Under the pieces are notes generated by a model. The model did not search any database and had not been told where the DNA came from. It saw only the letters and a list, made by a program, of their open reading frames with translations. A stretch of DNA of 64,000 bases, taken from positions 7,351-71,350 of the forward strand of contig CAWBKP010000010.1 of assembly GCA_963789395.1 (NCBI GenBank), written 5' to 3'. The translations under genes were made by a program, and so were the position numbers. The DNA is from an uncultured delta proteobacterium (GTDB lineage Bacteria > Desulfobacterota > Desulfobacteria > Desulfobacterales > Desulfatirhabdiaceae). Of this stretch, positions 32,894 to 51,039 are shown one piece after another; the first letter of the stretch is position 1; every line of letters begins with the position of its first letter.

Positions 32894-33323
32894 CTTTTAT
32901 TACAAATCAGTGCGGCGCCGGCGGGAAGAAACTTGAAGGCTCGGAGATGGTTGATCCGCCATGGGCACGCCGGGTACTTTATCTCTATGTCCCATACGGA
33001 CAGGATGCCGCTATGGGTATTGACAGTGCCATAATAAATGCGATAACTTCATGAACCTGCTCTTCTGCTGCTCCTTACACCCTTAATTTCGGGGGCAACC
33101 CCTGTGACGGGTTGAGCAGAAGGGCATTTTACCGGCAAAGCCGACTTTCTCTGACCCCGCCCACTGGACGGGGGTTTTCATGTAAAATCGGATGCACAGT
33201 TACAGAATCAAGCAGCAAGACCCACGTCATTCCTGATTTGCCGGAATAACGTAAATGAAAGCCCCTTTCCATTTTGTTCACTTCATTGTTTGGAATTGTA
33301 ACAGGCGACGGCGGAGGACGCGA

Positions 33324-34450: not shown

Positions 34451-35395
34451 ATGATTCTCAATGCCCGGGACAAAATTACCAGGGGTTTGTTGTCATTGGC
34501 CAAGACCCCCTTGGTCTTTTCTCCTTATTACCGATACCATCTTCCATTGCCCGCCGTGATCCTGATCGAGAATACAAACTGCTGCAACGCGCAGTGTGTC
34601 ATGTGCCCCCGCGAGATGCTGACCCGAAAACGCGGCTTCATGGAGTTCGGATTGTTCGAGAAGATCATACGTGAAGTGTCCAGCGTGAAACGAAAACCCG
34701 TCGTGCATTTGCATGGGTTTGGAGAACCGCTGCTGGATGAGTCGTTGCCGGAAAGGATCAAGCTTGCAAAAGCCTGCGGGATAAAGCATACTTATCTTGT
34801 TACCAATGCTTCGTTACTGTTCCCCGAGAAAGCCGGAAAGATCATCCGTGCGGGACTGGACGTGATGAAGATCAGTTTTTACGGCACCGATCAAGAATCG
34901 TATCGCGCCACCATGAAACGGCTTGATTTCGATGTGGCGCTTGACAACATCAAAGAGTTTGTGAGGATAAGAAAGGATCTGAACAAACGAACTCCGAAAT
35001 TGATTCTTCAATACCTGCCTCAGGAAGCCAATGGAGGCAAGACAAAGGAATTTCAATCTCTGTGGCACTCTGTCCTGGATAAGCGGGCGGGCGACTGCCT
35101 GAATTTCTGTGCTTTGGACAATTTTGGAGGCGGGAGAGCTTACAACCGTTTGGGAGAAAAAATAGTGTCCGTCTGTTTTTACCCCTGGTCAGCCCTGTCG
35201 GTGCTCTGCGACGGCAGGGCCGTTACCTGTTGTGTGGATTACAATGGCGTTCAGGGCGTCGGAAATCTGAACTTCCAGACCGTCAAGGAAATCTGGAACG
35301 GGCCTGAGTTGTCCCGGATCAGGAGCAGCTTTGGAAAAACGGATTATAGCGCGTTTCCGACCTGTCTTTGTTGCGACTGGGTACGCAGGCGGTAG
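34451..35395 (+). CDS. radical SAM / SPASM domain protein
   Basis: CNAQCVMC (CX3CX2C) radical SAM motif near the N-terminus and a Cys-rich C-terminal SPASM-like region (CFYPWSALSVLCDGRAVTCCVDY ... FPTCLCCDW). Confidence 0.8.
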   Translation: MILNARDKITRGLLSLAKTPLVFSPYYRYHLPLPAVILIENTNCCNAQCVMCPREMLTRKRGFMEFGLFEKIIREVSSVKRKPVVHLHGFGEPLLDESLPERIKLAKACGIKHTYLVTNASLLFPEKAGKIIRAGLDVMKISFYGTDQESYRATMKRLDFDVALDNIKEFVRIRKDLNKRTPKLILQYLPQEANGGKTKEFQSLWHSVLDKRAGDCLNFCALDNFGGGRAYNRLGEKIVSVCFYPWSALSVLCDGRAVTCCVDYNGVQGVGNLNFQTVKEIWNGPELSRIRSSFGKTDYSAFPTCLCCDWVRRR

Positions 35396-35517: not shown

Positions 35518-36498
35518 TTGAAGGTTTTGGTAACCGGCGCCACAGGATTTATCGGGAGCCACCTGGTGGAAGCCCTCGTTCAACGCGGAGCCCAAATCAG
35601 ATGCCTTGTACGGGACAAGAAGCAGTTAGGGTGGGTGAAAGACCTCCCCGTTGAGTTTGTTGCCGGAAATTGTCAGGAGAAGCATTCTCTAACACAAGCC
35701 GTGAAAGACATCGATCAGGTGTTTCACCTTGCGGGTGCGACAACAGCTGTCAAAGAAAAAACGTATTTCGAAGTGAATGCCCTGGGAACGGAGAACCTTG
35801 TCAAAGCCTGCATCGAAATCAATCCCCGTCTCAATAAATTCATCCATATTTCAAGCCAGGCAGCAGCAGGTCCGTGCCTGAGCGGCGGGAAGAAAAAGGA
35901 AACCGACGCTTGCGAACCGGTTTCGCCCTACGGGAAAAGCAAATTGCTGGGAGAGGAATTGGCTTTGTCCCGCTCCCGTGAGCTTCCGCTGCTTATACTG
36001 CGGCCATGTGCCGTTTACGGGCCCAGGGACAAAGGCTTCCTTGCGCTTTTCAAGTGCCTCTCCAGGAATATCCTTCCTTGCCTTTCGGGGATCGATCAAC
36101 ACATCAGCATGTGTCATGTTCAGGATCTTGTCCGGGCAATTCTTTTAGCTGCCGATACCCAATCAGCGCACGGAAATATATTTTTTATATCAGATGGGCA
36201 GGATTATCGGACGGCGGAAATCGGTGATATCTTTGCGGAAGCAATGAAGATCAATGCACTGCAGCTTCATATTCCCAAACAGATACTATTCGGCGTGGCC
36301 TTTTTTGCAGAATGTCTCTCAAGGGTCTCCGGAAAGCCATCCATCATGAACAGAGGCAAGGCAGCGGAAATGATCCAGCAGAACTGGGTTTGCGACATTA
36401 CCAAGGCCAGGACTTTATTGGGTTTTGAGCCCCGGATTTCTCTTGCCCGGGGAGCTGAATCAACCGTTGCCTGGTACAAAAATGAAAATTGGCTGTAA
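35518..36498 (+). CDS. NAD-dependent epimerase/dehydratase family SDR
   Basis: TTG start. VLVTGATGFIGSHLV Rossmann motif and catalytic YGKSK (YxxxK). 326 aa, typical of extended SDRs. Confidence 0.85.
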   Translation: MKVLVTGATGFIGSHLVEALVQRGAQIRCLVRDKKQLGWVKDLPVEFVAGNCQEKHSLTQAVKDIDQVFHLAGATTAVKEKTYFEVNALGTENLVKACIEINPRLNKFIHISSQAAAGPCLSGGKKKETDACEPVSPYGKSKLLGEELALSRSRELPLLILRPCAVYGPRDKGFLALFKCLSRNILPCLSGIDQHISMCHVQDLVRAILLAADTQSAHGNIFFISDGQDYRTAEIGDIFAEAMKINALQLHIPKQILFGVAFFAECLSRVSGKPSIMNRGKAAEMIQQNWVCDITKARTLLGFEPRISLARGAESTVAWYKNENWL

Positions 36499-36545: not shown

Positions 36546-37667
36546 ATGGCCGTCATCGAGATCATTACCGTGGAAAGCAGATCGGATCTTAAGGCCTTTA
36601 TCGATCTGCCCTGGAAAATATATGCGGAATACCCCAATTGGATCCCTCCCCTTAAGAAGGAAATTCGCCGGCTGCTGGATCCCGGCAAACACCCTTTCTG
36701 GGAGTTTTCCGAGCGCATCCTCTTTCTGGCCCGACGGGGTTCGGAAACGGTGGGAAGGATCGCGGGCATCATCGACCGCAATCATAACGCGTTTCACAGC
36801 GAACAGATGGGCATTTGGGGATTCTTCGAATGTGCCGACGATCCGGAAGTCGCGTCGGCCCTCTTCTCTTCCGCAGAGACGTGGGCGCGCCAAAAGGGGA
36901 TGTCCTTCATCAGAGGCCCGCTCAACCCTTCCACCAATTACGAGTTGGGGCTTCTCATCGAGGGTTTCAATTACCCGCCCGCCATCATGATGGCCTACAA
37001 TCCGCCGTACTATCCGGGGTTGGTCGAATCGTGCGGTTTCGTCAAAGAAAAGGATCTGCTGGCCTTTCTGATTGATGGCGATTACCGGCTCCCCGAATGG
37101 ATGGATCACCTTGCCGAATGGATCGCCAAAAAAGGCGGTATCCAAATCAGGCGGTCTCGTCCAAAGGATGCGGATGCCGAGTTTGCCCTGATCAGGGAGA
37201 TATACAATGCCTCCTGGTCCGGCAATTGGGGGTTTGTCCCCTTAAGCGATCATGAGATGCGGGACATTCAAAAGAATGTGATGGCATTTGTGGATCCGGA
37301 TATGGTTTTCTTCATTTATTATGGAGATGAACCCGCAGCATTCTGTGTTATCTTTCCAGACATCAACCCGTTGCTCAAACGTCTCAATGGGCGGATCGGC
37401 CTGCTGGGCTTGCTGAAGTTCCTGCTATATCGGCGGGAGATCAACGGATTGCGGCTGTTGATGTTTGGCGTCAAGGAGAAGTACCAGCAATTGGGACTCC
37501 CCATGCTGGCCTTTCACCACATATATGAGGTTGTGAGGAAGAAAGAAAAATATCGCTCCCTGGAGCTGGGCTGGACCCTTGAGGACAATGCATCGATCAA
37601 CTCTTTGATAGAGGAAGCCGGCGCAAAAATATACAAAAAATATCGCATATTCAGAAAGTCTTTATGA
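36546..37667 (+). CDS. GNAT-like N-acyltransferase (about 370 aa, two-lobed)
   Basis: Start at MAVIEIITVES. The blocks GRIAGIIDRNHNAFH..., WGFFECADD and the C-terminal LLMFGVKEKYQQLGLPMLAF (QxxGxP/A-like acyl-CoA loop) resemble large GNAT-fold acyltransferases. Assigned from memory, moderate confidence. Confidence 0.5.
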   Translation: MAVIEIITVESRSDLKAFIDLPWKIYAEYPNWIPPLKKEIRRLLDPGKHPFWEFSERILFLARRGSETVGRIAGIIDRNHNAFHSEQMGIWGFFECADDPEVASALFSSAETWARQKGMSFIRGPLNPSTNYELGLLIEGFNYPPAIMMAYNPPYYPGLVESCGFVKEKDLLAFLIDGDYRLPEWMDHLAEWIAKKGGIQIRRSRPKDADAEFALIREIYNASWSGNWGFVPLSDHEMRDIQKNVMAFVDPDMVFFIYYGDEPAAFCVIFPDINPLLKRLNGRIGLLGLLKFLLYRREINGLRLLMFGVKEKYQQLGLPMLAFHHIYEVVRKKEKYRSLELGWTLEDNASINSLIEEAGAKIYKKYRIFRKSL

Positions 37668-37742: not shown

Positions 37743-38578
37743 ATGAAAAGGAAAGTAGCCGAACGCGTATATATAGCGCGGCTCCTCGTGGTGATGAATT
37801 GCTGACAGGGGTTGCGGCAGGCTGCGCGCACCGGATCCACGCTCCGATGCAACCCGATGGCTGGAGTGCCCAGCCTATCGTGATCATGTGCCGCTTTACC
37901 CCCGATGCCGACCTGGATCCCGCCACCGGAAAGCCCGTGGGAGACGAAGGGTATTTTTTTTATATCCTGACCCAACCTGCCAATTGGGATTTCAGCGATG
38001 CCTCGTCGCTTCTCTTCTCAATTTGGCTGCATCCGTCGGCGCATAGCTGGATCATCCTGGAAAGCCCCGGGAATCGTCAGGAATTCGGCCACACCGGCAA
38101 CTTCGGGCAAGAGAAACCGCGCTACCATGACGGTGTGATGCAAAGGGTTCGGGAGGGAGATCCCGATCCAATCGCTTATTTGTGGCAGCCGATGTCCGAT
38201 GGCCAGTTCCAGATCGGCAAGCCCGGTCGCCCCCCTGCGTTCGTCTGGAAAATGCCGATTACCCGACGACGGTATCAAACGATCGAAGAATACGTAACGC
38301 AGCGGAAGTACGATCTGTTTGACTTGAGGACCGGCAACTGCACCGATTTTGTGATGGAGACAGCGGTGCTGGCGGGCATCAATCTGACCTACCGTATCCA
38401 CCTCACCTTGCCGCCTGAAGCAAGGTTCTTGGGCCGGACGCTGCGTGTTTGGACAGATCCGCAATACCGCATACTGGAGTTCGGTACACCCGAAGTTCTG
38501 GAGGTGGACCTGCGCCAGCTTGCCCGGATGGGAATCGGCAGTGACGCCACCGGGTGGTACCTGTCTTTGAAACACTGA
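37743..38578 (+). CDS. lipoprotein of unknown function with an NC-x-x-F Cys motif (possible NlpC/P60- or LRAT-like fold), 5' frameshift
   Basis: ATG 37743 gives MKRKVAERVYIARLLVVMNC*. Adding one T at TT 37799-37800 fuses it to ORF 37799-38578 and creates a lipobox (LLVVMNLLTGVAAGCA). The motif is LRTGNCTDFVMETA. Confidence 0.45.
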
Positions 38579-38644: not shown

Positions 38645-41281
38645 ATGTCGGCTGAACATCGCGCTCCAATCATCGCTTTCGTTTGGCGGCCCGAGGAGAT
38701 GACCCCGCCTGTAATCCAAATGGCGCATCAAACAGGGAGCAGGGCCATCTTCGATTTTTCCATGATGGGGGTGGATGCGCTGCGATCTTCCCTGCAAAAA
38801 GCCGGCCCCGACGGCCAGATCAGGGATATCAAGATTTCAGCTGCTGCATTTATGGAACCGTCTTTGGGACAGATATTACCCAATACAGGCGTCCAAAACC
38901 TTTGGATCGAATGTCACCCGCAGTTTTTCCAGGGAGATCCTTCCACGTTTCTACAGAGATTGAGGGAATTGCCGCAAAATTACCGCCTCTTCCCGATTTT
39001 CGGGGACCTGAATCTCCTGACGACTATTTTGACAGATGGCCCGGAAATCGGGCGCATCGTCCTGAAAGGAAGCGAGGCATCCGGATTCGTAAGCAGTGAG
39101 ACGACCCTGACGCTTTATTCAGCGGTCAAGGAAATGCTGCGACGCCGATCGAAGTTTTTGGACATCCTCATCTGGGGAAGTGTTTTCACTCCTGAGGCGG
39201 CTGCGGCATTTTTGTCCACCGGAGCCACGGGGATCGTCTTCGAGAGCCTCCATTGGCTGACAGACCTGGTTGCTGTTGATGATCTCCAACGCCGGCGGCT
39301 CTCCAACCTCCGCCTGGATTCAACCGATCTGGTCGGACTGGACCTGCAGGTTCCCTGTCGCATTTTCAACAAGGGAAACTCGATCGCGTTCAAGGAGATC
39401 AAAAGTTTCGAAAACGCGCTGTGCGGAGCAAGGATCACGGAGGAAAGCCGCCGATCCTTCGAGAACCGAGTGAGTATTGGGACCCGCCACCCTCTGGAGA
39501 GTGCTTTCACCCCGGGCGAGACCATCCCTCTGGGTGTGGAGGCAGCCTTTGCCGCATCCTTTGCCGAGCGTTTTGGAACGGAAACCGAGGAAGCCGTGAA
39601 GTCCTTCATGAACGAGATTCACAGCTCATGCCGCCAGGCTGTTATAAAAAATGACTGCTTTTTGAACAGCCCCGTCGCCGCAGAGATGGGATCCAAATAC
39701 CCTTTTATCCAGGGAGCCATGACCTGGATCACCGATGTCCCTGAGTTTGCCTCACGGGTTGCCGAGGCCGGCGGGTTGCCCACAATCGCCCTGGGCATGA
39801 TGGACGCCGAAACCCTTGATCGGAAGCTGGGACACCTGCCGGAGATCATGGGCGGGCGCTCTTATGCCGTGAATATCGTCTCTCTGGCGGAGAACCCTTT
39901 CAGGGAGACCCAACTGGCATGGATAAAGAAACACCGGCCCCGTTTTGTGGTGATCGCGGGAGGGGATCTCTCCTTTTTAAGGGATTTGTTGGCATGCGGA
40001 CTGGAGATCATGTATATCGCCCCGAACGAGGCATTGTTGCGACTCGCTCTTGAAGCCGGCGCCCGGTATGTGATCTGCGAGGGATATGAGGCCGGCGGGC
40101 ACGTTGGCCGCCATAGCACGCTTACCCTTGCTCAAATGGTACTGGATCTGAAACGAATCAAACCATCCCTGTTCCAGAATTGCCGCATGATTCTTGCCGG
40201 GGGAATTTTCAACCGGGAAACCGCATTCATGGCAGCCATGCTCGGAGCAGATGCCATCCAGATGGGCACCGCATATCTGGCCACCCGTGAAATCATTGAA
40301 ACGGGAGCCCTGACGGCGCTCTATCAGCGGATGGTCCTGGAATCACCTCCTGGCGGAACGGTCGTTTCAGGCAGGGACACCGGACTTCGGGTGCGCTCCT
40401 TGAAGTCCCCGAGAACAGCCGCAGTTTCATCCCTGGAGCGGGAATTTGCAGCGGATCACCCAGACGAGAGTTCCTTCCGCACGAAAATAGAAGAGATGAC
40501 GGCGGGAAGCCTCTTCACCGCGGCCCGCGGCATGGAAAGACCCGGCGGGGCGCCTCTGGATGAGCGGACCTGCCTGGAACGCGGACAATTCATGAGCGGG
40601 GCCAGTGCCGGCCTTATCAGCAATGTCCTGAATCTGCCGTCCTTCCATCGCGAGTTGGCTGAAGGCCATCTTTTGCTGCATCAGCCCGGGGGTTCCACCG
40701 AGAGAATGCCGGAACCTTCACCCGGCGCTTCGCGCCCCATGAAACCCCCATCCAGCGGGATTGTCCAGGGACTGATGAAACCGGCGCTGCATAAAGACGC
40801 CCATGAAAGGGTTGCCATCACCGGGATGAGTATTCTCAATACCCTGGGGGATAGTCCGGAAGGGGTCTGGGCGGCAAGCCTGGCCTTGAAGAGCGGGATT
40901 ACCCTGGTTCCGTCTTCCCGGTGGGATCACACTCTTTTTTATGATCCCCGCCCGTTTGCTCCGGACAAGACTTACTGCAGGGTGGGCGCCTTCCTGGACG
41001 TTCATATCTCCCGAGGCGAACTCGGAATTTCCCCGCATGATTTCCGAACCATGACCGATGCCACAAAGCTCACCCTGTGGCTGGCGGACAAGGCCATCCG
41101 GGAGTCCGGCATCCTGGAGTCGAACATCCCACGGGAGCGAATCGCAGTCCTTGTCTCCCAGAACTCCGGAGAAGCGGCGGCAACCTTCACCGATCTTAAT
41201 CATAAGGGCGCATGTTCACGACATCCTGGCCGATATCAATCGGGTGCTTCACCTCAGTCCGGATCAGATGCGCGCCGCTGA
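38645..41281 (+). CDS. megasynthase part 1: two PfaD/nitronate-monooxygenase-like enoyl reductase domains plus the start of the KS
   Basis: The second ER domain is clear (YPFIQGAMTWITDVPEFASRVAEAGGLPTIALGMM ... CEGYEAGGHVG ... MGTAYLATRE). The first roughly 330 aa form a degenerate copy of the same fold. The KS begins at RVAITGMSILNTLGDSPEGVW. The true reading passes into ORF 41058-45983 at about 41197. Confidence 0.8.
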   Translation: MSAEHRAPIIAFVWRPEEMTPPVIQMAHQTGSRAIFDFSMMGVDALRSSLQKAGPDGQIRDIKISAAAFMEPSLGQILPNTGVQNLWIECHPQFFQGDPSTFLQRLRELPQNYRLFPIFGDLNLLTTILTDGPEIGRIVLKGSEASGFVSSETTLTLYSAVKEMLRRRSKFLDILIWGSVFTPEAAAAFLSTGATGIVFESLHWLTDLVAVDDLQRRRLSNLRLDSTDLVGLDLQVPCRIFNKGNSIAFKEIKSFENALCGARITEESRRSFENRVSIGTRHPLESAFTPGETIPLGVEAAFAASFAERFGTETEEAVKSFMNEIHSSCRQAVIKNDCFLNSPVAAEMGSKYPFIQGAMTWITDVPEFASRVAEAGGLPTIALGMMDAETLDRKLGHLPEIMGGRSYAVNIVSLAENPFRETQLAWIKKHRPRFVVIAGGDLSFLRDLLACGLEIMYIAPNEALLRLALEAGARYVICEGYEAGGHVGRHSTLTLAQMVLDLKRIKPSLFQNCRMILAGGIFNRETAFMAAMLGADAIQMGTAYLATREIIETGALTALYQRMVLESPPGGTVVSGRDTGLRVRSLKSPRTAAVSSLEREFAADHPDESSFRTKIEEMTAGSLFTAARGMERPGGAPLDERTCLERGQFMSGASAGLISNVLNLPSFHRELAEGHLLLHQPGGSTERMPEPSPGASRPMKPPSSGIVQGLMKPALHKDAHERVAITGMSILNTLGDSPEGVWAASLALKSGITLVPSSRWDHTLFYDPRPFAPDKTYCRVGAFLDVHISRGELGISPHDFRTMTDATKLTLWLADKAIRESGILESNIPRERIAVLVSQNSGEAAATFTDLNHKGACSRHPGRYQSGASPQSGSDARR

Positions 41282-44200
41282 ACGCGAGGTGAAATCCGGA
41301 CGCCTGGCCCCGGACGATACCACACTCCTGGGCAGGCTCAACTGCGCGGCGGCCGGCTTTATCTGCAACCGGTATGGGTTCATGGGACCCAGCCATTCCG
41401 TCTCCGCAGCCTGCGCAACCTCACTGGTCGCACTTCACAGCGCCATCCAGATGATCCGGACCGGCATCATCGATGCAGCCATCGTCGGAGGGGGCGAGGA
41501 GTATCTCAGTCGAATGCATTTTCTGGAATTCTCCGCCCTGGGCGCCCTTTTCGGGTTGTCCGGGCAGGAAAGGCCCGCTCATGAAACCTCCCGCCCCTTC
41601 GACGCCGAAAGAGACGGAATGGTACTGGGCGAAGGCGGGGGAATGATCATTATCGAGCGGGAAAGCTCGGCCCTGCACAGAGGGGCGCATATCCACGCCG
41701 TCATCACGGGCATGGGCGCCAGCAACAACCATCTGGGCATGGTAGAATCCTCCAGTGTCACCCAGGAGATCGCCATCCGCGCCTCTTTCCAGGGGACACC
41801 CTATGGACCCGATGCGGTGGACCTGGTGGAATGCCATGCCACGAGCACCCGGCAAGGGGACGTGGAGGAGGTCCGTGCCCTGAAGGCGATTTTTCATTCT
41901 TCCAATCGCACAGTCATTACCTCATTCAAATCCCAGATCGGACACACACTGGGCGCCTCGGGCATCAACAGCCTCATTCGCGGCGTCATGGCCATGAAGG
42001 CGGGGGTTTTCCCTCCCACCCTCAATTATACGCATCCAGACCCGGAAATCGGCCTGGAAGGATCGGGACTCTTCATTACCCCCGAGCCGCTTGACTGGAA
42101 GTGCAGGGCCGGCCGGTTAAGAAGGCTCCAGGTTAATGCTTTCGGGTTTGGAGGTTCCAACTACGTGGTGCAGTTGGAACAGTCCATGGATGAAGCGGCC
42201 ACGATCCTTGTCTCCCCCGAAGGTGAGCCTTCTGAGCTTCAGGGGATCTCTTTCTTCCGGACCCAGATGGACGGCCGTCACTACCGGACGGCCGTCGTGG
42301 CGGAATCCGAAGAAGCGGCGCTCACTGTCTTTGAGAGATCGCGCCACCTCCTTTCAAAAGACGGAATCGCCACTCCCAGGGCATTGAGATCCCTGGCACA
42401 TCAGGGAATCTTCATGGGCGCTGAGGATCTGCCGGTGCTGCCGCTCGCGTTGGTATTTCCCGGACAGGGCACCCACTATGCAGGAATGGGGCGGGATCTC
42501 TACGAGTCCTTTTCCGTCATCAAGGGGTGGATGGATCGGGCTGCGGCGGCCGCGGACTTTGACCTTCTTCATCTCTTGTTCCATGACCGCGAAGAGAACC
42601 TTCAAATGACCCGGTGGCAGCAACCGGCCCTGTTCGTTCTGGAATACGCCATGGCGAAATTCCTCCTCTCACTTGGCATCCGCCCGGTGGCGATGGCCGG
42701 CCACAGTTTGGGCGAACTGACCGCCCTGTGCCTGTCCGGCGTCTATTCCCTTGAGGACGGATTCCGAATTGTGAATAAGCGGGCGCTCTGTATGGACAAG
42801 GCCGCCGCCATGCACGTGGATCCGGGTGTCATGGCGGCCACGGACGCCCCCCTGGAATTGCTGAAAGAGATGGTCCGGGAACGGGACGATGTCCATATCT
42901 GCAATATCAATTCACCGAAACAGGTCGTTCTGGGTGGCAACACCGAGGCGGTCAAATATCTGGGTATCAGACTGAAAGAGAAGGGATTCCGCTCAACCCT
43001 TTTACGGGTCAGCATGGCCTTCCACTCTCCTATCATGAGAGTCATTCATGACGAACTCGAAGCGTTTATTGCCACCATCCCGTTTCATTCCCCGCAGATT
43101 CCCGTCATCTCCAACACGACCATGGCGCCGTATCCATCCGATCCAGGAGAGATCCGGCGCATTCTGATGACTCACCTGGAATCTCCCGTCCACTGGATGC
43201 ATAACGTTCAGACGCTTTGGAACGACTACGGCGTCCGACTCTTCATGGAGGTCGGTCCAGGCGACATATTGAGCAATCTCATCGCAGACACGCTCTCTGG
43301 CGCAACATGCATCCAAACTTGCCTTCCCCGGGAAGAGAGTTTGACCTGCAGGACAGCTCTTGCCCAGCTTTTCGTGCAAGGACATCTGATGGGACAAAGG
43401 GAAATCAGCCCGGCATACCCGGAAGCCTCACCGGCATCAGATATCCAATCCATGACAGGCGGCCCCTTGCCCCCCGAAAACCGGATGGAACCCCCCGACA
43501 CTACGAAGACTCCTTCTCCAGACAATGCGCCTGAGAACCCGGATCACATGGAGCGTCTTATACGAATCATCATGGAGGCTACGGGTTTCGAAAGAAGCGA
43601 GATCCAACCCGATATGGATCTGAGGAAAGACCTTTCCATCCGCTCCAGCCGCCTTCCGATCATCATGGACGCTGCGGAACACCAATTCGGAATCACTATC
43701 GAATTGCAGGATTTTATCCATGTCCGCACCGTGAAGGACATCGCGCAGAAGATCTCCGAGATAATCGCCAGGCAGGAAGGCTCCGGACCACTTCCGGCCA
43801 CCCGGGCTGTTGACCCCGGCATGGTGCGGGATGAAATCCTGAAACCCTCTGCGAATGCGGTGAGCCTGAAGCGACTCGTATTCAGTTATGTCCCTGTCGA
43901 TCCACCAGCTTCCATTCCCATACATTTTGAGCCGGACCAGTCAGTTCTCGTTCTCTCACCGGACCGGGAGGACAGCATTGCAGCAAGCGTCGCAGACATC
44001 TTCCGCCGGGATTGCGGAATTGACTTATTTCCCCTGTCGTTCATGCAATGGAGCTCCGGTCCAGTCGAAACAGGCCACGACATCAGAACCGCCGAAGGGG
44101 GCCATGAGCTTGCCGATCGGATTGCGGGTTTGACGTCTGCGGTTGGGATGGTTATCTCCTTGCATCAACTGGCGGAAAATTTAAAACGCATGGAGGATAT

Positions 44201-45983
44201 TGCACAGATTCTCAGAGGCTTCTTTATCCTCCTGAAAACATTTCTCCAGACACCGGACAGGAAACTCGTCATGCTGATCCACTCTCGGGAGGATACCGAA
44301 ACACCGGTTCGGCTCCTGGCGGAGGGGATGACGGGACTTTTTCTGAGCGCAGCGCTGGAACACCCGGCGGTCCTGTTTCGCACACTGGAAATCGACCACG
44401 ACACCGACATTCGCATTGCCTTACGTGATGCTTTGGACAGTGGATACAAGATAGTGGAGATGGTGCATCGCAATGGGAGGGTTTTCACCTCCGAGGGACA
44501 TGTCGCTCCGTCGCTCTTCAGGGATGTATCAAGCCTGGAACTGAGTCCAGGAGACGTTGTCGTCATGTCCGGAGGCGCAACGGGAATCAGCTCCCATCTG
44601 GCCCGCAGTTTTGTTCCCTTTAAGCCCCGCCTGGTCTTTCTGGGAAGAACGACTCTCGATCCAGGCATGCATGTAACTCCCCGCACCATGCATCCGACTT
44701 CAACGCCTTTTGTTCTCGAAGACAGGGCTTTGGAGATTACCCGGACCCTGGCTGATTTGCACGCCTCAGGGATCGAGGCATCCTACCATACCTGCGATGT
44801 CGCTGATCCCGAGGCGGTCCGTGCCGTCATGGACGAGTTGGCAAATCGTTATGGCAAGATCCGGGGGATCATCCATGGTGCAGGCGTCCTCAGGGACGGA
44901 TTCCTCAACCAACTGACTCCGGATGATTTTTCCATTGTCACGGACATCAAATTCCTCGGTGCATGGAATTTATTCCTGGCTGCCGAGAAGGCCGGCTTGA
45001 GGTTTTTCGTGGGCCTTTCTTCGGTGGCCGCGATCCAGGGGAATCCCGGCCAAACCAACTACGCGGCCGCCAACCGGATGATGTCCGCGTTGATCAGAAC
45101 CCTCCGGCGGAAGAATGGCGCCATCCGGTTCAAGGCATTAATGCTTCCCCCAATCGAGGGGGCGGGCATGGCCGAGGACCCGGATATTCGGGAACTGATG
45201 CGGCTGAAGGGCGCGTCGTACATTCATGTAGATGAGCTTGCAGGGCTTTTCTGCCGGGAGCTTTTCGCATCCCCGGCCGACGATAATTGGGTCATGTTCA
45301 TGCGGACGCTGCCCTCCGTAAAGACGGCAAGGCTAAATGACAGGACCGGTCCTTTGCCCAATGGAGTACTGGATGGAGGCTTCGCGGCTTTAAGCCCCGA
45401 GGGCTTTCCCATGATAGAGGGGATCTCCGGCCTGGACATCCGCCGGGAACAACTCGAAGCCTTCAGGTCCTTCTCCCGGGAGAAGGATCTTTGGATTGAG
45501 GATCACAGACCCTTGACGTTTATCAAGCATCCCCTGGTTTCAGCCGCCATGTTTCTGGAGACATTCATGGAAGCCGCCCGGATCCTGTATCCTTATTTGC
45601 AGGTGTGCGGAGCCCGCCAGGTGCGGTTCCTGGACATGATCCAATGTCCTCCCGGGATAGTGCGGTCCATCCATCATCTCCTGCCGCCGGGTGGGGAGCC
45701 ACCTTCCGGAGGTATTGTGCGAGGTTTCTCTGGCGACACAGGCGCTCTCCCCCACAGGAAAATTGGCAGACCGCTTCACCCCCCACTGCAAGGGTCAGGT
45801 CATTCTGGGCGGCGGGGAAGGCTTTCTGGGAGAGGGTTTCCTGGATTTTCCCGTCCGGGCCGACGAACTGACTACGGATCCCATGAATCAAAAAAATATG
45901 CTGAAATGGTACAAGAAACATTCCGGCCTCAAAGGCAGGTATCGCGTATTGGAAAGTCCTTGACGGCGCCGGTCCGAAAGTGA
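41058..45983 (+). CDS. megasynthase part 2: KS-AT-ACP-KR-DH(N-terminal part) of a type I PKS/FAS-like enzyme
   Basis: KS (SVSAACATSLVALHSA, VECHATST, SQIGHTLGASG), AT (FPGQGTHY, AGHSLGE), ACP (MDLRKDLSIRSSRL), KR (VMSGGATGISSH ... QTNYAAANRMM), and the DH hot-dog start (LWIEDHRPLTFIKHPLVSAAMFLE). Only residues from about 41197 onward are real. The last roughly 100 aa of the listed ORF are out of frame. Confidence 0.85.
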   Translation: MPQSSPCGWRTRPSGSPASWSRTSHGSESQSLSPRTPEKRRQPSPILIIRAHVHDILADINRVLHLSPDQMRAAEREVKSGRLAPDDTTLLGRLNCAAAGFICNRYGFMGPSHSVSAACATSLVALHSAIQMIRTGIIDAAIVGGGEEYLSRMHFLEFSALGALFGLSGQERPAHETSRPFDAERDGMVLGEGGGMIIIERESSALHRGAHIHAVITGMGASNNHLGMVESSSVTQEIAIRASFQGTPYGPDAVDLVECHATSTRQGDVEEVRALKAIFHSSNRTVITSFKSQIGHTLGASGINSLIRGVMAMKAGVFPPTLNYTHPDPEIGLEGSGLFITPEPLDWKCRAGRLRRLQVNAFGFGGSNYVVQLEQSMDEAATILVSPEGEPSELQGISFFRTQMDGRHYRTAVVAESEEAALTVFERSRHLLSKDGIATPRALRSLAHQGIFMGAEDLPVLPLALVFPGQGTHYAGMGRDLYESFSVIKGWMDRAAAAADFDLLHLLFHDREENLQMTRWQQPALFVLEYAMAKFLLSLGIRPVAMAGHSLGELTALCLSGVYSLEDGFRIVNKRALCMDKAAAMHVDPGVMAATDAPLELLKEMVRERDDVHICNINSPKQVVLGGNTEAVKYLGIRLKEKGFRSTLLRVSMAFHSPIMRVIHDELEAFIATIPFHSPQIPVISNTTMAPYPSDPGEIRRILMTHLESPVHWMHNVQTLWNDYGVRLFMEVGPGDILSNLIADTLSGATCIQTCLPREESLTCRTALAQLFVQGHLMGQREISPAYPEASPASDIQSMTGGPLPPENRMEPPDTTKTPSPDNAPENPDHMERLIRIIMEATGFERSEIQPDMDLRKDLSIRSSRLPIIMDAAEHQFGITIELQDFIHVRTVKDIAQKISEIIARQEGSGPLPATRAVDPGMVRDEILKPSANAVSLKRLVFSYVPVDPPASIPIHFEPDQSVLVLSPDREDSIAASVADIFRRDCGIDLFPLSFMQWSSGPVETGHDIRTAEGGHELADRIAGLTSAVGMVISLHQLAENLKRMEDIAQILRGFFILLKTFLQTPDRKLVMLIHSREDTETPVRLLAEGMTGLFLSAALEHPAVLFRTLEIDHDTDIRIALRDALDSGYKIVEMVHRNGRVFTSEGHVAPSLFRDVSSLELSPGDVVVMSGGATGISSHLARSFVPFKPRLVFLGRTTLDPGMHVTPRTMHPTSTPFVLEDRALEITRTLADLHASGIEASYHTCDVADPEAVRAVMDELANRYGKIRGIIHGAGVLRDGFLNQLTPDDFSIVTDIKFLGAWNLFLAAEKAGLRFFVGLSSVAAIQGNPGQTNYAAANRMMSALIRTLRRKNGAIRFKALMLPPIEGAGMAEDPDIRELMRLKGASYIHVDELAGLFCRELFASPADDNWVMFMRTLPSVKTARLNDRTGPLPNGVLDGGFAALSPEGFPMIEGISGLDIRREQLEAFRSFSREKDLWIEDHRPLTFIKHPLVSAAMFLETFMEAARILYPYLQVCGARQVRFLDMIQCPPGIVRSIHHLLPPGGEPPSGGIVRGFSGDTGALPHRKIGRPLHPPLQGSGHSGRRGRLSGRGFPGFSRPGRRTDYGSHESKKYAEMVQETFRPQRQVSRIGKSLTAPVRK

Positions 45984-46317
45984 TGCGCGGACAAAGCGTC
46001 TGCCGGCAGACAGGTGATTTTAAAAATCTGCGGAACGTTCATTATCAATACTCTCCCTATCTTTTAGAAGCCATTTTGCAATTGGCCGGCCTCCACTGCA
46101 TTGTCATGAATATAACGGAGAAACGATCCATGATTCCCATGGAGATCGGGGAGATGCGCTTTTCCCGAAAATGCCGGGCGGGGGAACAGATCACCCTGGA
46201 GGCCCGCATGCGGGCGCAGAATGCGCAAAGTCAGCTTGGGACGCCCGAGGACTTGATGATCAAGGCCGCACCATCATGCAGGTTTCCAATTTGGTGATGC
46301 ACTGGATTTCAGGCTGA
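45691..46317 (+). CDS. megasynthase part 3: remainder of the DH domain, spread over three frames
   Basis: ORF 45691-45963 reads ...LCEVSLATQALSPTGKLADRFTPHCKGQVILGGGEG ... KWYKKHSGLKGRYRVLES. ORF 45980-46297 reads ...HYQYSPYLLEAILQLAGLHCIVMN ... IGEMRFSRKCRAGEQITLEARMRAQ. A final frame gives WDARGLDDQGRTIMQVSNLVMHWISG*, ending at 46317. The frameshifts are near 45670, 45955 and 46225. Confidence 0.65.
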
Positions 46318-46335: not shown

Positions 46336-46368
46336 AGACCGGCTCGGTTATGGAAACCGAGCCGGTCT
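46336..46368 (+). terminator. 13-bp perfect hairpin after the megasynthase (no T-tract)
   Basis: AGACCGGCTCGGT-tatggaa-ACCGAGCCGGTCT, 19 nt after the reconstructed stop at 46317. The lack of a U-tract makes its function as an intrinsic terminator uncertain. Confidence 0.35.
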
Positions 46369-46430: not shown

Positions 46431-47162
46431 GTGGATATGGGGAAGGATTGCCAGGGCATTACCGTCCATGCAGTGAGTTTTGATCATCGCGGGGGACCCG
46501 CATTCTATGCATCCTTGCCGGGTGATGGTGAAAACCACAAAGGGTGCCGGTCGAACGGGGAAGAAGACAAGAATCGCCTGGTCTCCTTTCTGTTGGATCA
46601 CGTTACGGGGATGGATAGTCCTCTTGGGAAATGCCGGCTTTCGTTCGATAGCGATCCTTTTCCCATTCACGTGGTCCGCGACCCGCTCGGCAGGCCGCAT
46701 CTCCTGTTGGGAGAACATCGGGGTCCGGCCATCTCCTTCAGCGAGGGTGGCGGGAAAATCTGGGCCGCGCTTTGCGGGGATGCATCCGATATCGGCATCG
46801 ATGTAGCAACGGCCGATGAATTTCAGGGAGGATACCCCTGTCACCGGGTCTTTCATGACCGGGAGATCCAATATGCCTTAAGGTTGACGGGGGGAGACAT
46901 GGAAAAGGCTTCAGCCCTGCTCTGGTCCATCAAGGAAGCGGTTGTCAAGGCCCTGGGATGCGCATTCCATCTTGTGGCGCCCCGGCAAGTTCACATCTAT
47001 CCTTCGACAGGGGGGGACGGGGGATATACTTTCCCCGTGTGCTTATCGAGGAAGGCCCTGGCACGGTCTCCCACGAGCACAGGCTGTTTCATATGGGTGC
47101 GTTCGTTTCCCCAGGCGAAGATGTGGCTTTCCATTGCCCTCTTGAGCTGGCAGCCACGTTGA
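46431..47162 (+). CDS. 4'-phosphopantetheinyl transferase (Sfp-type)
   Basis: Motifs DPLGRPHLLL, ISFSEGGG, DIGIDVATADEF and WSIKEAVVKALG (the PPTase W/F-x-x-K-E-A-x-x-K signature). Confidence 0.8.
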   Translation: MDMGKDCQGITVHAVSFDHRGGPAFYASLPGDGENHKGCRSNGEEDKNRLVSFLLDHVTGMDSPLGKCRLSFDSDPFPIHVVRDPLGRPHLLLGEHRGPAISFSEGGGKIWAALCGDASDIGIDVATADEFQGGYPCHRVFHDREIQYALRLTGGDMEKASALLWSIKEAVVKALGCAFHLVAPRQVHIYPSTGGDGGYTFPVCLSRKALARSPTSTGCFIWVRSFPQAKMWLSIALLSWQPR

Positions 47163-47215: not shown

Positions 47216-48168
47216 ATGATGAAAGAAACTGAATACGCCATCGAAGTCGAAAAACTGACGAAGCGTTATGGGGATTTGCAGGCAGTTAACGACATCTCGT
47301 TCAACGTCCGGAAAGGCGAGGTTTTCGCCTTGTTGGGCCCGAACGGAGCCGGCAAGACCACCACTGTCGAGATCATCGACACCATCCGCACGCCCACGTC
47401 GGGAAACGTTCGCCTTCTGGGAATGGACGTCACAAAGAAGAAGCGCGACATCGTCCCCCGCATCGGCGTCCTCCCGCAGGGGTTCAACTCGTTCGATAGG
47501 ATAACCGTCAGGGAAACCGTGCAGTACTACTCGCGGCTTTTCTGTTGCAGGAACGTCAATATCGACGGGCTGATAGCGCTTGTGAATCTCAATGAAAAGG
47601 CCAAAGAGCAATACATGAATCTCTCCGGTGGATTGAGACAGCGCCTCGGGATCGCAATTGCGCTCGTGAACGACCCCGAGGTCGTGTTTCTAGACGAGCC
47701 GACGACAGGACTCGACCCCCGCGCCAGGCGCGAGGTATGGGACGTCCTGCTGGGCCTGAAGCAGGCTGGAAAGACGGTATTTCTCACCACGCACTACATG
47801 GAGGAAGCTGAGCTTCTTGCGGACACTGTAGCAATTATCTCCAAGGGGAAGATCATCGCCATGGACTCTCCCGTGCAGCTCATCGAAAGCAACGCGGATT
47901 ACCTGGTCCTCACGCTGCAGTCTGTGGATGAAAAAACTTTTGAAGTCGTAGGGAAGATGGGCTTCGCGCCGGAACTTACCAACACAAAAGCCTCAATGTG
48001 AAGGTGGCGGGCACGGACGACATCCGGAAGATACTGAACGCCATGGAAGACTCCGGGGCCGCGTTGCTCAGCATGGACGTTCGCAAGCCCAACCTCGAAC
48101 AGGTCTTCCTGAATCTTACCGGCGAGGCGCTCCACGAAGGCGCTTCCGTGGGAAAGGGGGTGAAATGA
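47216..48168 (+). CDS. ABC transporter ATP-binding protein (ABC-2 exporter type), one frameshift
   Basis: Walker A GPNGAGKTT, signature LSGGLRQR, Walker B VVFLDEPTTGLD. ORF 47216-48001 stops prematurely. One extra A in the A-run 47986-47989 restores ...TNTKSLNVKVAGTDDIRKILNAMEDSGAALLSMDVRKPNLEQVFLNLTG..., ending at 48168. Confidence 0.85.
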
Positions 48169-49279
48169 ACCTGCGCGTTGTTGTCGCAAGCCTCGTCGTG
48201 AGCCTCAAGAGCTTCTACCGCGAGAAGACCACGATGTTCTTCACAACTACCTTCCCGATACTCCTGATACTCGTGTTCGGCACGATTTTCCAGGACCAGG
48301 ACAAATTGAATTTCGACCTTTGCCTGCAGGACCTCGACCAGACAGAAACCACGGCGGAAATCGCAAAGACCCTGTCCCTTACCGGGAAGTTCAACGTCAC
48401 CAAGGTCGATCCTACCATCGATGCCGCACATTACGCCAAGACCAACCAGATAAACCTTGTTGTCATCATTCCCAAAGACTATGAAAAATCTTGTATGCAA
48501 TATCTGCAATCCGGCGATCCCGATGCATTCGTTACCATCCAGTTTGTCTACGATCCCAGCTCCAATCGGTGGATACGAAGATGCGAATTCTGGACATTAT
48601 ATTCGCCAAGCTGAACCAGGGGATGTCCGGAAAGCCGCCGTTCGTCAAGACGGAAGAAATATCGATTCTCACCAGGAAATACCGGTTCATCGAGTTCTTT
48701 ATCCCCGGCGTCATCGCAATGGCGGTGATGACCGCAAGCCTGTTCGGAACTGTGAACGTGAACACGGAGCTGCGGCAGAAGGGCATCATCCGGAAACTGT
48801 CCACCACGCCCATCACCCGCTCGGACTGGATACTGTCTAACATTCTATACCAGTTCATACTTGCGGTCATATCCACCACGGCAATGCTTATAGTGAGCTA
48901 CGCCGTGTTTGACGTCAAATTGCAGATAAACGCCTGGCTCCCGCTGTTCATCGTGCTTGACGTTTTTACGTTCGTTGGTATCGGGTTGATACTCACCCGC
49001 ATCGTGAAGGAGGCGCAGAGCGCCGCCGCCGCAGCCAACGCCCTCATATTCCCGATGATGTTCCTCTCGGGGAGCTTCTTCCCGCTCGAGATGATGCCGC
49101 GCTTCTTGCAGACGTTCGCCAGGGCCCTGCCTCTGTACTATGTGAACGAGGGTCTTCGGGCATCCATGGTGTTTCACGACAACGCCGCCGCACTGAATTA
49201 TGCCGCGATAATCGGAGCCTTCGCGTCACTGGTCTTCGTTCTGGGTCTCATCGCCACCAAATGGGAAGAGGGTAATTGA
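48165..49279 (+). CDS. ABC-2 type transporter permease, one frameshift
   Basis: ORFs 48165-48614 and 48491-49279 join if CC at 48562-48563 is read as CCC (...VYDPSSQSVDTKMRILDIIFAKLNQ...). The C-terminal half has the ABC-2 membrane domain (FFIPGVIAMAVMTASLFG ... FPMMFLSGSFFPLEMMP). The ATG overlaps the ATPase stop. Confidence 0.8.
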
Positions 49280-51039
49280 CAGCCAAACATCCCTTTCGCG
49301 CCATCACGCAAGCACCCCATGCCCGTGTCATTACCGCCTTGCTTGCAGCAACGCTCGCTGTCCTTATCGATTTCATTTTCAGATTCAGCAATTACCGGGA
49401 TCTACTGCATCTGCTCCCGGACGCCGGAGCCATGAAGTTTTCGGGCGCACTCACGCTGGTATTTCTCCAGGTGATCGCTCTCTTTTATCTCATGCTTCTT
49501 CTTCCCAGGCTTCTCCGTGCGGTCGTCTTCCTGTTTTTTGTTTTTGTCCTGGTCGTCCAATTCTCCTACTGGCTGACACTTAACCAGTTCATGACAAGCA
49601 CCGACCTGTTTCTCGCCCTGAATGTCAGCGCCGACAATTTCGAAGGCGCCATTTCAAGCTTCCTCAAGCCGCTTATCTTCTGGTATGCGCTTCCCTACGC
49701 ACTCGTACTATCCACACTGATTTTCGTCCCAGTCAGATCCACATTCCGAAAGTCCCTCGCGCTCAGCCTCCTGCCCGCATTCTACCTGCTCTTTTCCAAT
49801 TCCGCCCTCTTTCTTTACGCGGCTGAAGGCAATTTCCATCTGAATCCCCTGACCTCCCTCCTCCGTACAGCACTTCATTACGAATTTGAAACCCTCCGAG
49901 AATATCAGGGCCCCCGGGAAGACCTGCCGGTATTTCCTGCCTCCCAACGGCCACATAACAGCATCATCTATATCATCGATGAATCCATTCGAGGCAGCAA
50001 TCTCAGTCTGAACGGCTACCCGCGGGCCACCACACCGTTTCTTCAATCTTTAGAGACCCAGGGACGCCTCAAGAATCTCGGCATTTGCGTTGCTGCCGGC
50101 ACCTATTCCTACCTCAGCAATGCTTATCTGGTTACCGGCCACAACGCATTTCCCGACGACACTTTTCGAACATTCAAGAACCCGACCCTCTTTGATTACG
50201 CTAAAAAAATGGGTTACGAAACGATCTATATCGATGTCGACAGTGGCTATCTTTCCAAGCTTCTGGAAACCGCCCGGGAGGGTCACGTGAGATCCCTGGA
50301 CCGGTGGATGACCGATCAATCGTTCAGGGATCGCCATATCGATCTTGAAACCACGAAAGACCCGGGCGTCGCACGCTTTCTGAGTAGTCTTCTGAACGAA
50401 AGAGGCGGTTATTTCATTCTCGTCAACAAGAAGGGCCTTCATTTCCACTATCGCAATACCTACCCGGATGATCCGGCCTTTACGTTTTGGGAGCCGGTTA
50501 TGGAAACATCGGAACCCATCGACCCCAGCCCGACCGGCCGCGAAAAGCTCGTTAATACCTATGACAACGGGATTCGCTTTCAGGTGGATGAATTCTTCCG
50601 GGAGTTCGTGTCCGATACAACGAATCAGAATTATGTCATCCTTTACACTTCGGACCATGGCCAGACGTTGGCCGAGCATGGGCAGGTGTATACCCATGTA
50701 AAGTCTGACAAGGTGATCGTCGACGTACCGGCGTTTCTCGTAGTCGGTGAGCGATATGACAAGAAGGGTTCCTTAGCCGGCATTCGCCCCGGCATCCGGG
50801 TTTCCCATCTGAACAATTTCGCGACCATCCTCGATCTGATGGACGTACCGTTGTCTTTGCGGGTTCGTCCCTACGACAAATCGATTTTTTCTTTGACGTC
50901 CGAGGACAACAGCGAGCGCTACTATATGAGCGGTTCTCTTCATGGCTCCGGCGATTACGTGGTGAAGATGATACCGACACCACCGGATGAGGGATGGGGC
51001 GTTTCGAGACTTCTCGGCAAGGTCCTCAAGTCTGAATGA
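49276..51039 (+). CDS. membrane-anchored sulfatase-family transferase (phosphoethanolamine/phosphoglycerol transferase-like)
   Basis: Five or six N-terminal TM helices, then an alkaline-phosphatase-superfamily domain (IIYIIDESIRGSNLSLNGYPRATTPFL ... ILYTSDHGQTLAEHGQ). The TTG start overlaps the permease stop. Confidence 0.7.
   Translation: MTAKHPFRAITQAPHARVITALLAATLAVLIDFIFRFSNYRDLLHLLPDAGAMKFSGALTLVFLQVIALFYLMLLLPRLLRAVVFLFFVFVLVVQFSYWLTLNQFMTSTDLFLALNVSADNFEGAISSFLKPLIFWYALPYALVLSTLIFVPVRSTFRKSLALSLLPAFYLLFSNSALFLYAAEGNFHLNPLTSLLRTALHYEFETLREYQGPREDLPVFPASQRPHNSIIYIIDESIRGSNLSLNGYPRATTPFLQSLETQGRLKNLGICVAAGTYSYLSNAYLVTGHNAFPDDTFRTFKNPTLFDYAKKMGYETIYIDVDSGYLSKLLETAREGHVRSLDRWMTDQSFRDRHIDLETTKDPGVARFLSSLLNERGGYFILVNKKGLHFHYRNTYPDDPAFTFWEPVMETSEPIDPSPTGREKLVNTYDNGIRFQVDEFFREFVSDTTNQNYVILYTSDHGQTLAEHGQVYTHVKSDKVIVDVPAFLVVGERYDKKGSLAGIRPGIRVSHLNNFATILDLMDVPLSLRVRPYDKSIFSLTSEDNSERYYMSGSLHGSGDYVVKMIPTPPDEGWGVSRLLGKVLKSE

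Follow-up and report, generated by a model that had tools for sequence, protein, structure and literature searches.

The locus and its reading unit

Considered here is a megasynthase gene, i.e., one encoding a large multi-domain synthase, found within a 64,000-nucleotide stretch of DNA (assembly GCA_963789395.1, contig CAWBKP010000010.1, positions 7,351 to 71,350 of the forward strand) from an uncultured delta proteobacterium of the Desulfatirhabdiaceae. That whole stretch is what is meant by 'the window', and its numbering is used throughout. The gene lies on the forward strand, opening with an ATG at 38645, with AGAGGA found 5' of it, and closing with a stop codon at 46315-46317, as seen from the listing and translation of open reading frames (ORFs). 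An 878-codon frame opens at 38645, a 1642-codon frame overlaps the end of the first, and three short frames then reach the stop. Two intact relatives, P0003 (2557 amino acids, 85% identical) and P0002 (2536 amino acids, 93% identical), served as tblastn queries, with which the same DNA is resolved into five pieces, that is, 38645-41197 (frame 2), 41196-45665 (frame 3), 45652-45954 (frame 1), 45959-46234 (frame 2), and 46234-46314 (frame 1).

Positions 38645 to 46317 are a single megasynthase gene. Its domains, in order, are a pseudo-enoyl reductase (pseudoER), an enoyl reductase (ER), a ketosynthase (KS), an acyltransferase (AT), an acyl carrier protein (ACP), a ketoreductase (KR), and a dehydratase (DH), as follows.

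38645..46317, + strand: whole megasynthase reading unit, five collinear pieces totaling ~2,555 codons (P0003 and P0002 as tblastn queries; Pfam/NCBIfam domains; intact orthologues of 2536-2557 amino acids)
38645..39664, + strand: N1, a pseudoER predicted as a FabK/NMO-like TIM barrel, with a Phe codon (39086-39088) at the catalytic-His position (phmmer, hhalign, and AlphaFold2 [AF2] with Foldseek)
39677..40684, + strand: ER, FabK-like and flavin mononucleotide (FMN)-dependent, with motif I Met at 39719-39721, catalytic His at 40100-40102, and QMGT box at 40265 (Pfam NMO, 77.5 bits)
40805..42030, + strand: KS, with Cys at 41412, His at 41835, and His at 41943 (Pfam ketoacyl-synt N and C, split over two frames by frame change 1)
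42453..43307, + strand: AT, with GHSLG Ser at 42705 and AFHS motif His at 43023 (Pfam Acyl_transf_1, E 1.7e-43; TIGR00128, fabD-like)
43551..43748, + strand: single ACP, with attachment Ser at 43644-43646 (Pfam PP-binding, 24.7 bits)
44559..45179, + strand: KR catalytic subdomain, with GGATG at 44571 and Tyr at 45060 (Pfam KR, E 4e-33)
45370..46317, + strand: DH of PKS type (polyketide synthase), a double hot-dog with His at 45504 and three frame changes inside (Pfam PS-DH, matched by the 45905-46297 piece and, in P0003, by residues 2432-2553)

Pfam domains are met with across the window's pieces in the order NMO, KS (the N-terminal domain of which is interrupted at frame change 1), AT, PP-binding, KR, and PS-DH, and the same set is seen in P0003. 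The five C-terminal domains, KS-AT-ACP-KR-DH, thereby follow the order of PfaA. A prior, sequence-only reading of this DNA had proposed two tandem ER units of the NMO fold ahead of those five domains, all within one gene, and a complete reducing set consisting of KR, DH, and ER. Both proposals are borne out, the reducing set standing in PfaA-like order. That reading had also named what would speak against it, which is an ER region forming its own gene, with its own stop and start. What is seen instead is that the ER and the first 130 residues of the KS share one unbroken frame, i.e., residues 1-851 of the 878-residue ORF product, and for this reason the reductase part does not form a gene of its own.

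Every catalytic codon that was checked is found in the window copy, that is, ER Met (39719) and His (40100), the Cys and both His of the KS, and the AT Ser, ACP Ser, KR Tyr, and DH His. The AFHS motif of the AT we take to be a signature of malonyl-type specificity. The ACP is less conventional, as upon alignment with mycobacterial AcpM it displays IRS over IDS, with Arg thus standing instead of Asp before the attachment Ser. Further basic residues are seen in helix II of the same alignment, and the Arg-Ser motif is conserved across the family at 90% or more.

Twin reductase barrels

Both N-terminal domains are of FabK/NMO type and not of PfaD type. The sequence-only reading had described the reductase as PfaD/PksE-like, and this did not hold up. 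The ER, at approximately residues 345-680, scores 132 bits against TIGR03151 (FabK) versus 18 bits against TIGR02814 (PfaD), its best sequence relatives in the PDB are the FabK proteins of Thermotoga, C. difficile, and S. pneumoniae (E 8e-27), and FabK tops the fold search as well. Its 77.5 bits are well over the Pfam NMO (PF03060) cut-off of 28. TIGR03151 is the best family match, but with a score under that family's equivalog cut-off (132 vs. 453 bits), the ER being a domain and not an equivalog, and the TIGR02814 score likewise is under its cut-off (18 vs. 449 bits). All three FabK motifs, QGAM, EAGGH, and QMGT, are present in the ER, with none of them present in N1. Names and roles of these motifs, i.e., motif I as FMN contact, the catalytic His, and the phosphate box, are as given in PMC13311796.

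N1 taken alone, i.e., the first 345 residues, matches nothing in Pfam or NCBIfam, even at an E value of 10. Because the family profiles give no match, its homology is taken instead from phmmer, hhalign, and fold. A phmmer search with N1 of 1.8 billion protein representatives reaches NMO proteins that stand alone (E 3e-9 to 1e-5), and reaches as well the N-terminal, Pfam-recognizable NMO domains of more distant megasynthases. Aligned by hhalign, N1 and the ER domain correspond over 188 columns (E 2.4e-4), with KGxEASGF lying over EGYEAGGH. An AF2 model of N1 (mean pLDDT 64, with 70-92 in the barrel) is an eight-fold beta/alpha barrel for which the best PDB match is FabK, at TM-scores of only about 0.4.

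How far the two barrels have diverged may be seen from 160 family members of more than 1500 residues. At the catalytic position, His is present in the ER of 146 out of 146 and in the N1 of 0 out of 146, N1 displaying there Phe in 126 and, in the rest, residues such as Tyr, Trp, Leu, and Arg. Only the ER has motif I (QGxM) and the QMGT phosphate box, N1 having lost both. The earlier description of a degenerate first copy along with a second copy retaining all of its motifs is in agreement with these counts. N1 nevertheless is 67-86% identical among 109 homologues, and its ratio of nonsynonymous to synonymous substitution rates (dN/dS) is 0.49, versus 0.16 for the ER. As it is conserved though its catalytic motifs are gone, N1 is, as judged from these comparisons, a catalytically dead, paralogous barrel, that is, a retained pseudo-enzyme rather than debris.

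Distribution of the family

A search of 5.8 billion proteins supplied 1608 homologues, and nearly all of the best 120 share the same Pfam set, at lengths of 2500-2830 residues. Relatives of the N1-ER di-domain are seen in at least 525 genomes, from a scan of one genome per species. Carriers include Syntrophobacteraceae, Syntrophales (Smithella), Syntrophorhabdales, Desulfobaccales, Desulfobacterales, and Desulfobulbaceae, Geobacter and other Desulfuromonadales, and also Nitrospirota, Planctomycetota, Acidobacteriota, Verrucomicrobiota, and Lentisphaerae. The family is widespread among anaerobic bacteria and, it appears, unstudied. The whole gene is one ORF, of 2506-2762 amino acids, in 39 of the 55 loci that contain all of it, and intact, single-ORF relatives are up to 93% identical to the window copy.

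N1-ER identity is 58-86% among the best 80 loci, with at least 64% seen in 79 of them. Across metagenome-assembled genomes (MAGs) of Desulfobacterota, Nitrospirota, Planctomycetota, Acidobacteriota, Verrucomicrobiota, and Lentisphaerae, it is far above what housekeeping proteins display between phyla. That excess suggests a horizontal spread of the megasynthase among anaerobes.

Domain types making up this protein are all known already. What appears to be new is the N-terminal FabK-like tandem with its predicted dead copy, the Arg-Ser carrier motif, and a conserved operon (below). Within the literature searched, including PMC13291983, there was no description of such a tandem in cis, of that motif, or of an operon combining the GNAT, phosphopantetheinyl transferase (PPTase), and ABC-2 genes.

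Frame changes and their cause

The sequence-only reading had noted four interruptions, near 41197, 45670, 45955, and 46225, and all four recur as boundaries between tblastn pieces. They can be compared also with L001, a contig of another assembly that is 94.3% identical to the window at the nucleotide level and which carries P0002.

41196..41197, + strand: frame change 1, frame 2 to 3, inside the KS (tblastn boundaries; single-base length difference vs. L001)
45652..45670, + strand: frame change 2, frame 3 to 1 (tblastn boundaries, L001 comparison)
45955..45959, + strand: frame change 3, frame 1 to 2 (tblastn boundaries, L001 comparison)
46231..46234, + strand: frame change 4, frame 2 to 1 (tblastn boundaries; L001/P0002 leaves the family reading here too)

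At L001:10263-10290, the 3' end of the P0002 gene, the family's C-terminal reading is lost and replaced by an unrelated tail, at the same site as the window's fourth break. As L001 leaves the family reading near the C-terminus, the protein called as P0002 is 21 residues short (2536 vs. 2557 amino acids). Overlapping ORF pairs elsewhere in the window are, going by a Pfam scan, mostly just adjacent genes.

The four frame changes very probably are indel errors of the consensus sequence, a view favored by the agreement of several kinds of indirect evidence. The window genome is a long-read assembly (4.37 Mb, 25 contigs) in which essential genes are similarly broken. Its only valS is found in five frame pieces, none of them over cut-off (C5:91951-94526), its only leuS in four (C23:42639-45204), and its one full-length dnaE-type match, which is located on the window's own contig, in two (C10:118598-121661), the other dnaE-type match being a 68-position fragment. 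Breaks differ as well between relatives. In L001 the megasynthase, ABC ATPase, and permease genes are intact where those of the window are broken, and the sulfatase and fatty acyl-AMP ligase (FAAL) genes are broken where those of the window are intact. All six genes are intact on the short-read contig carrying P0003, and the copy in G008, another few-contig, long-read assembly, also is shattered. Brokenness tracks assembly type. Of the 19 long-read "contig_" MAGs from a single survey, 13 have frames that end prematurely, as against 3 among 36 assemblies from elsewhere (Fisher p = 7e-6, uncorrected for relatedness). In broken related copies reading resumes each time in another frame, at positions that differ between genomes. 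Lastly, dN/dS for the megasynthase vs. L001 is 0.25-0.33 over 2,334 codons, and no in-frame stops occur within the window's pieces.

Certain observations nonetheless weigh against consensus error as the whole explanation. The breaks lie amid runs of two bases at most, with no long homopolymers, and 'homopolymer error' therefore is not quite an apt description. The genes rpoB, rpoC, and ileS are unbroken in this same genome, and with error rates being that uneven a real lesion may exist among the four breaks. For the last 90 codons, furthermore, dN/dS is 1.3, as based on a tiny sample and in a region where the relative itself is aberrant. Consensus quality, it may be remarked separately, varies strongly between contigs.

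Were the four changes real, then the gene would be a true pseudogene and the lipid operon would be decaying in this lineage. There is something to be said for this: four breaks in 7.7 kb, more of them next to it, in the genes of the lipoprotein, the ABC ATPase, and the permease, a neighboring 3.5-kb FAAL fusion and sulfatase gene which are intact, break contexts that are not those of classic homopolymers, and an operon that is patchy within the genus. But breaks of this kind occur as densely, or more so, in essential, single-copy genes (valS, leuS, and dnaE), the sites and genes affected are different ones in related long-read assemblies, and the dN/dS of 0.25-0.33, the stop-free pieces, and the retention of every catalytic residue are not what a pseudogene would display. 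Decay consequently is judged unlikely, and where the sequence-only reading had held decay and homopolymer error to be equally likely, it is sequence error that stands, on genome-wide and comparative evidence, rather than the equal odds or any long homopolymers. Still harder to credit is that the N-terminal reductase is a separate, trans-acting protein, or that the frame changes are sites of programmed recoding. Some database entries are indeed of 1770-1929 amino acids without NMO, or of about 700 amino acids with N1-ER only. Those short entries that were checked, however, come from frame-broken long-read contigs (e.g., P0043 on the L047 contig), and the break sites differ between relatives, 39 of which have the gene as one ORF, while here the ER is continuous with the start of the KS. 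Consensus error, acting upon an intact gene, is the explanation carried forward below.

Operon and neighbors

Genes around the megasynthase, along with one sequence feature, are as follows.

36546..37667, + strand: GNAT-superfamily, 'acyl-CoA N-acyltransferase'-like gene, 373 amino acids, intact (maps to L001:579-1700)
37799..38578, + strand: small lipoprotein-like gene, 278 amino acids in L001 (L001:1777-2613), with a signal/lipobox-like N-terminus and a frame change near its 5' end
46337..46367, + strand: perfect 13-bp hairpin, terminator-like or a repeat, just past the megasynthase stop (read from the sequence; 20 of its bases are missing in L001)
46431..47162, + strand: Sfp-type PPTase (Pfam ACPS)
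47216..48001, + strand: ABC transporter ATPase (Pfam ABC_tran), shortened by a frame change near 47984; 317 amino acids in relatives
48491..49279, + strand: ABC-2 type permease (Pfam ABC2_membrane), with a frame change near 48566 that displaces the 5' part; 371 amino acids in relatives
49276..51039, + strand: sulfatase-family (LtaS/EptA-like) membrane enzyme, intact (Pfam Sulfatase); 587 amino acids on the P0003 contig, broken in L001
51076..54582, - strand: FAAL-ACP-alpha-oxoamine synthase fusion, 1168 amino acids, intact (Pfam AMP-binding, PP-binding, Aminotran_1_2)

A conserved operon core, consisting of the GNAT-like gene, in some cases the lipoprotein gene, the megasynthase, the PPTase, the ABC ATPase, and the ABC-2 permease, is present across many anaerobic phyla. 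The GNAT-like homologue is the most conserved partner, directly upstream on the same strand in 72 of 74 related loci. Downstream are found the PPTase (47 of 49, same strand), the ABC ATPase (44 of 48), and the ABC-2 permease (43 of 47). The lipoprotein-like gene, which lies between the GNAT-like gene and the megasynthase, is present in 27 of 69, had no family match in profile searches, and differs in the window from L001 by a single base in length near 37798.

The GNAT-like protein is named acyl-CoA N-acyltransferase or GNAT in source annotations. Pfam support is weak, with PF00583 and PF13480 exceeding the cut-off in close homologues, whereas the nearest copy, at 18.6 bits, falls just short; neither a PDB sequence match nor an NCBIfam match was found for the 373-residue protein. 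The gene's dN/dS vs. L001 is 0.10. The protein, from one phylum to another, is 77-97% identical. It is the obvious candidate for release of the chain.

The sequence-only reading had looked for partners among the neighboring lipid genes, i.e., the FAAL-ACP-oxoamine synthase and the sulfatase-family enzyme. These prove to be limited by lineage, whereas the conserved partners are the GNAT-like protein, the PPTase, and the ABC-2 exporter. The two genes occur only beside the closest orthologues of the megasynthase (those in the window genome, G000, and in G008 and G010) and are missing beside 55-63% identical paralogues in the same genus. They are lineage-specific accessories for that reason, and the FAAL-ACP-oxoamine synthase is rejected as a general partner.

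Some further observations concern the neighborhood. Within the PPTase gene, at 46542-46587, three single-base length differences from L001 fall inside 45 bases, and PPTase lengths vary among relatives (218, 243, and 260 amino acids). Upstream are a glycosyltransferase-like gene (33255-34298), a radical SAM/SPASM gene (34451-35395), and an NAD-dependent epimerase/reductase gene (35518-36498), which recur in 15, 9, and 28 of 80 loci, respectively. Farther off, 30 kb upstream on the reverse strand (6325-7443), is a gene resembling those of ketoacyl-ACP synthase III (KAS III) and type III PKSs (fabH family match, 85 bits); were the Azotobacter ars system a guide, its substrate could come from a type I synthase.

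Proposed function

The gene probably is a single and functional one, encoding a type I, iterative, fully reducing synthase of the PKS or fatty acid synthase (FAS) type, with its frame breaks artefactual. Iterative, FAS-like function is plausible by analogy. That is, judging by how type I FAS/PKS and Pfa-type synthases are established to work, the single ACP would be primed by the PPTase, the AT would load malonyl units, and the KS, KR, DH, and FabK-like ER would run repeated cycles of full reduction, giving rise to a saturated, long acyl chain. As there is no thioesterase, and as there are instead a near-universal GNAT-like neighbor and an exporter, the GNAT-like enzyme may then off-load that chain onto an amine acceptor, with the ABC-2 transporter exporting the resulting lipid to the envelope. 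The dead barrel, N1, would serve as a structural dimer partner of the active ER, since FabK-type ERs work as dimers and since a heterodimer of paralogous ERs is described from Schizochytrium (PMC13311796). TIM-barrel ERs in general act as dimers according to that same source, and in the thraustochytrid pair one partner is dependent on the other. Additional steps may be supplied, in the lineage of the window, by the FAAL-ACP-oxoamine synthase and the sulfatase-family enzyme.

Two considerations temper this proposal. The AF2 model of the N1-ER di-domain is of too low a quality (pLDDT 53, pTM 0.39) for an interface to be seen, and product, iterative action, release by the GNAT-like protein, and N1's role as partner all are inferred. 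More speculative still, and offered only tentatively, is a broader version in which a five-gene operon would make an as yet unassigned class of exported, N-acylated long-chain lipids, would have been dispersed by horizontal transfer over at least eight phyla of anaerobes, and in which the His-less barrel would be an obligatory, intramolecular dimer partner, each chain thereby possessing one self-contained reductase of FabK type.

Other functions can be considered. The megasynthase could be the organism's primary FAS, replacing an incomplete type II system, a role that has been suggested for the Type S cluster of Desulfobacterium autotrophicum (PMC3098273), and with which the full KS-AT-ACP-KR-DH-ER set would be compatible. 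In this genome, though, fabZ and three fabH genes score over cut-off and a FabK-like gene occurs on its own, on which basis a primary-FAS role is rejected for it; the operon also is patchy among congeners, and its ties to an exporter and an acyltransferase fit better with an accessory envelope lipid. We thus consider the idea very improbable. Less probable yet is a synthase of the PUFA (polyunsaturated fatty acid) or olefin type, i.e., a PfaA fused to a PfaD and making polyunsaturated chains. The last five domains are in PfaA order (KS-MAT-ACP-KR-DH, where MAT is the AT), TIGR02813 is the second-best NCBIfam match, and Type I and Type J clusters of Deltaproteobacteria are described as having pfaD followed by pfaA (PMC3098273). 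Beyond domain order the resemblance to PfaA fails, however, with P0003 scoring 409 bits against TIGR02813 versus a cut-off of 1010, with one ACP rather than a tandem array, with an ER that is FabK-like (18 bits vs. PfaD), and with no PfaC-type KS-CLF-DH/I or PfaB in the operon, here or in the related loci examined. With scores below the cut-offs of both TIGR02813 and TIGR02814, membership among PUFA synthases is rejected. The Type S cluster (Shulse & Allen 2011, PMC3098273) might, on the other hand, be the same system as that described here, the text of that paper stating no domain order for Type S.

If this reading of the family is correct, then sulfate reducers, syntrophs, Nitrospirota, Acidobacteriota, Planctomycetota, and other groups of peat, sediment, and groundwater share a lipid pathway that is very common yet unstudied, and which is defined by a compact operon that is open to expression and assay. 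The family would supply a natural case of a pseudo-enzyme domain kept inside of a megasynthase, along with a carrier protein of inverted charge at its attachment site, both of them relevant to FAS/PKS structure and engineering, and may be a clue to where orphan environmental lipids come from. The window copy itself adds a test of frame breaks but is a poor exemplar of an interesting family. For annotation, the implication is that multi-break "pseudogenes" in few-contig, long-read MAGs need prior checking against essential genes and short-read relatives.

Comparison with known systems

PfaA of the bacterial PUFA synthases, together with its trans-acting ER, PfaD (Shewanella, Photobacterium; the 'secondary lipid synthases' of Shulse & Allen 2011, PMC3098273), is like the megasynthase in a KS-AT-ACP-KR-DH order with a C-terminal DH of PKS type, in an FMN TIM-barrel ER that is not of MDR type, and in a dedicated Sfp-type PPTase within the cluster. 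The ER gene precedes the pfaA homologue in clusters of Types J and L, which may be compared with the N-terminal ER found here. Unlike the trans-acting ER of PfaA/PfaD systems, the megasynthase's ER is an N-terminal cis fusion of FabK-like type that occurs as two copies, one of them dead. There are, in addition, a single ACP with an Arg-Ser motif, no PfaB or PfaC, scores that are below cut-off, and, as partners, a GNAT-like acyltransferase and an ABC-2 exporter.

The thraustochytrid ERb and ERc (Schizochytrium, PMC13311796) also are two paralogous TIM-barrel ERs that are cis-fused to synthase subunits, forming there a heterodimer. Both of those, however, keep their catalytic His and are located C-terminally in different polypeptides, whereas the megasynthase has its pair side by side at a single N-terminus, with one of them lacking that His.

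FabK, the enoyl-ACP reductase II of type II FAS (S. pneumoniae 2Z6I, T. maritima 5GVH, C. difficile 7L00), is the best match of the ER by both sequence and fold, and the best fold match of N1. Features of the ER that are like those of FabK are its motif I (QGxM), its EAGGH with catalytic His, and its QMGT box. FabK, though, is a free homodimer, whereas the ER is one domain of a 2,550-residue synthase, has a His-less twin alongside, and scores 132 bits vs. the 453 of the cut-off. The ERs of trans-AT PKSs, PksE and MlnA (AT-ER; 4Z38, 4YX6), resemble the present one as FMN TIM-barrel ERs that serve a type I synthase, but these are of the PfaD clade, act in trans, are fused to an AT, and are only weak fold matches to N1 and the ER.

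The operon logic is shared with the heterocyst glycolipid pathway of cyanobacteria (HglE-type synthases, the HetI PPTase, and the DevBCA exporter; in part PMC3098273), in which an envelope lipid likewise arises from a reducing synthase of Pfa-like kind acting together with a dedicated PPTase, an exporter of ABC type, and a transferase for tailoring. It differs in having a synthase that is split otherwise and without a FabK-like tandem, in employing a glycosyltransferase rather than a GNAT, and in exporting by way of the tripartite DevBCA rather than an ABC-2 pair.

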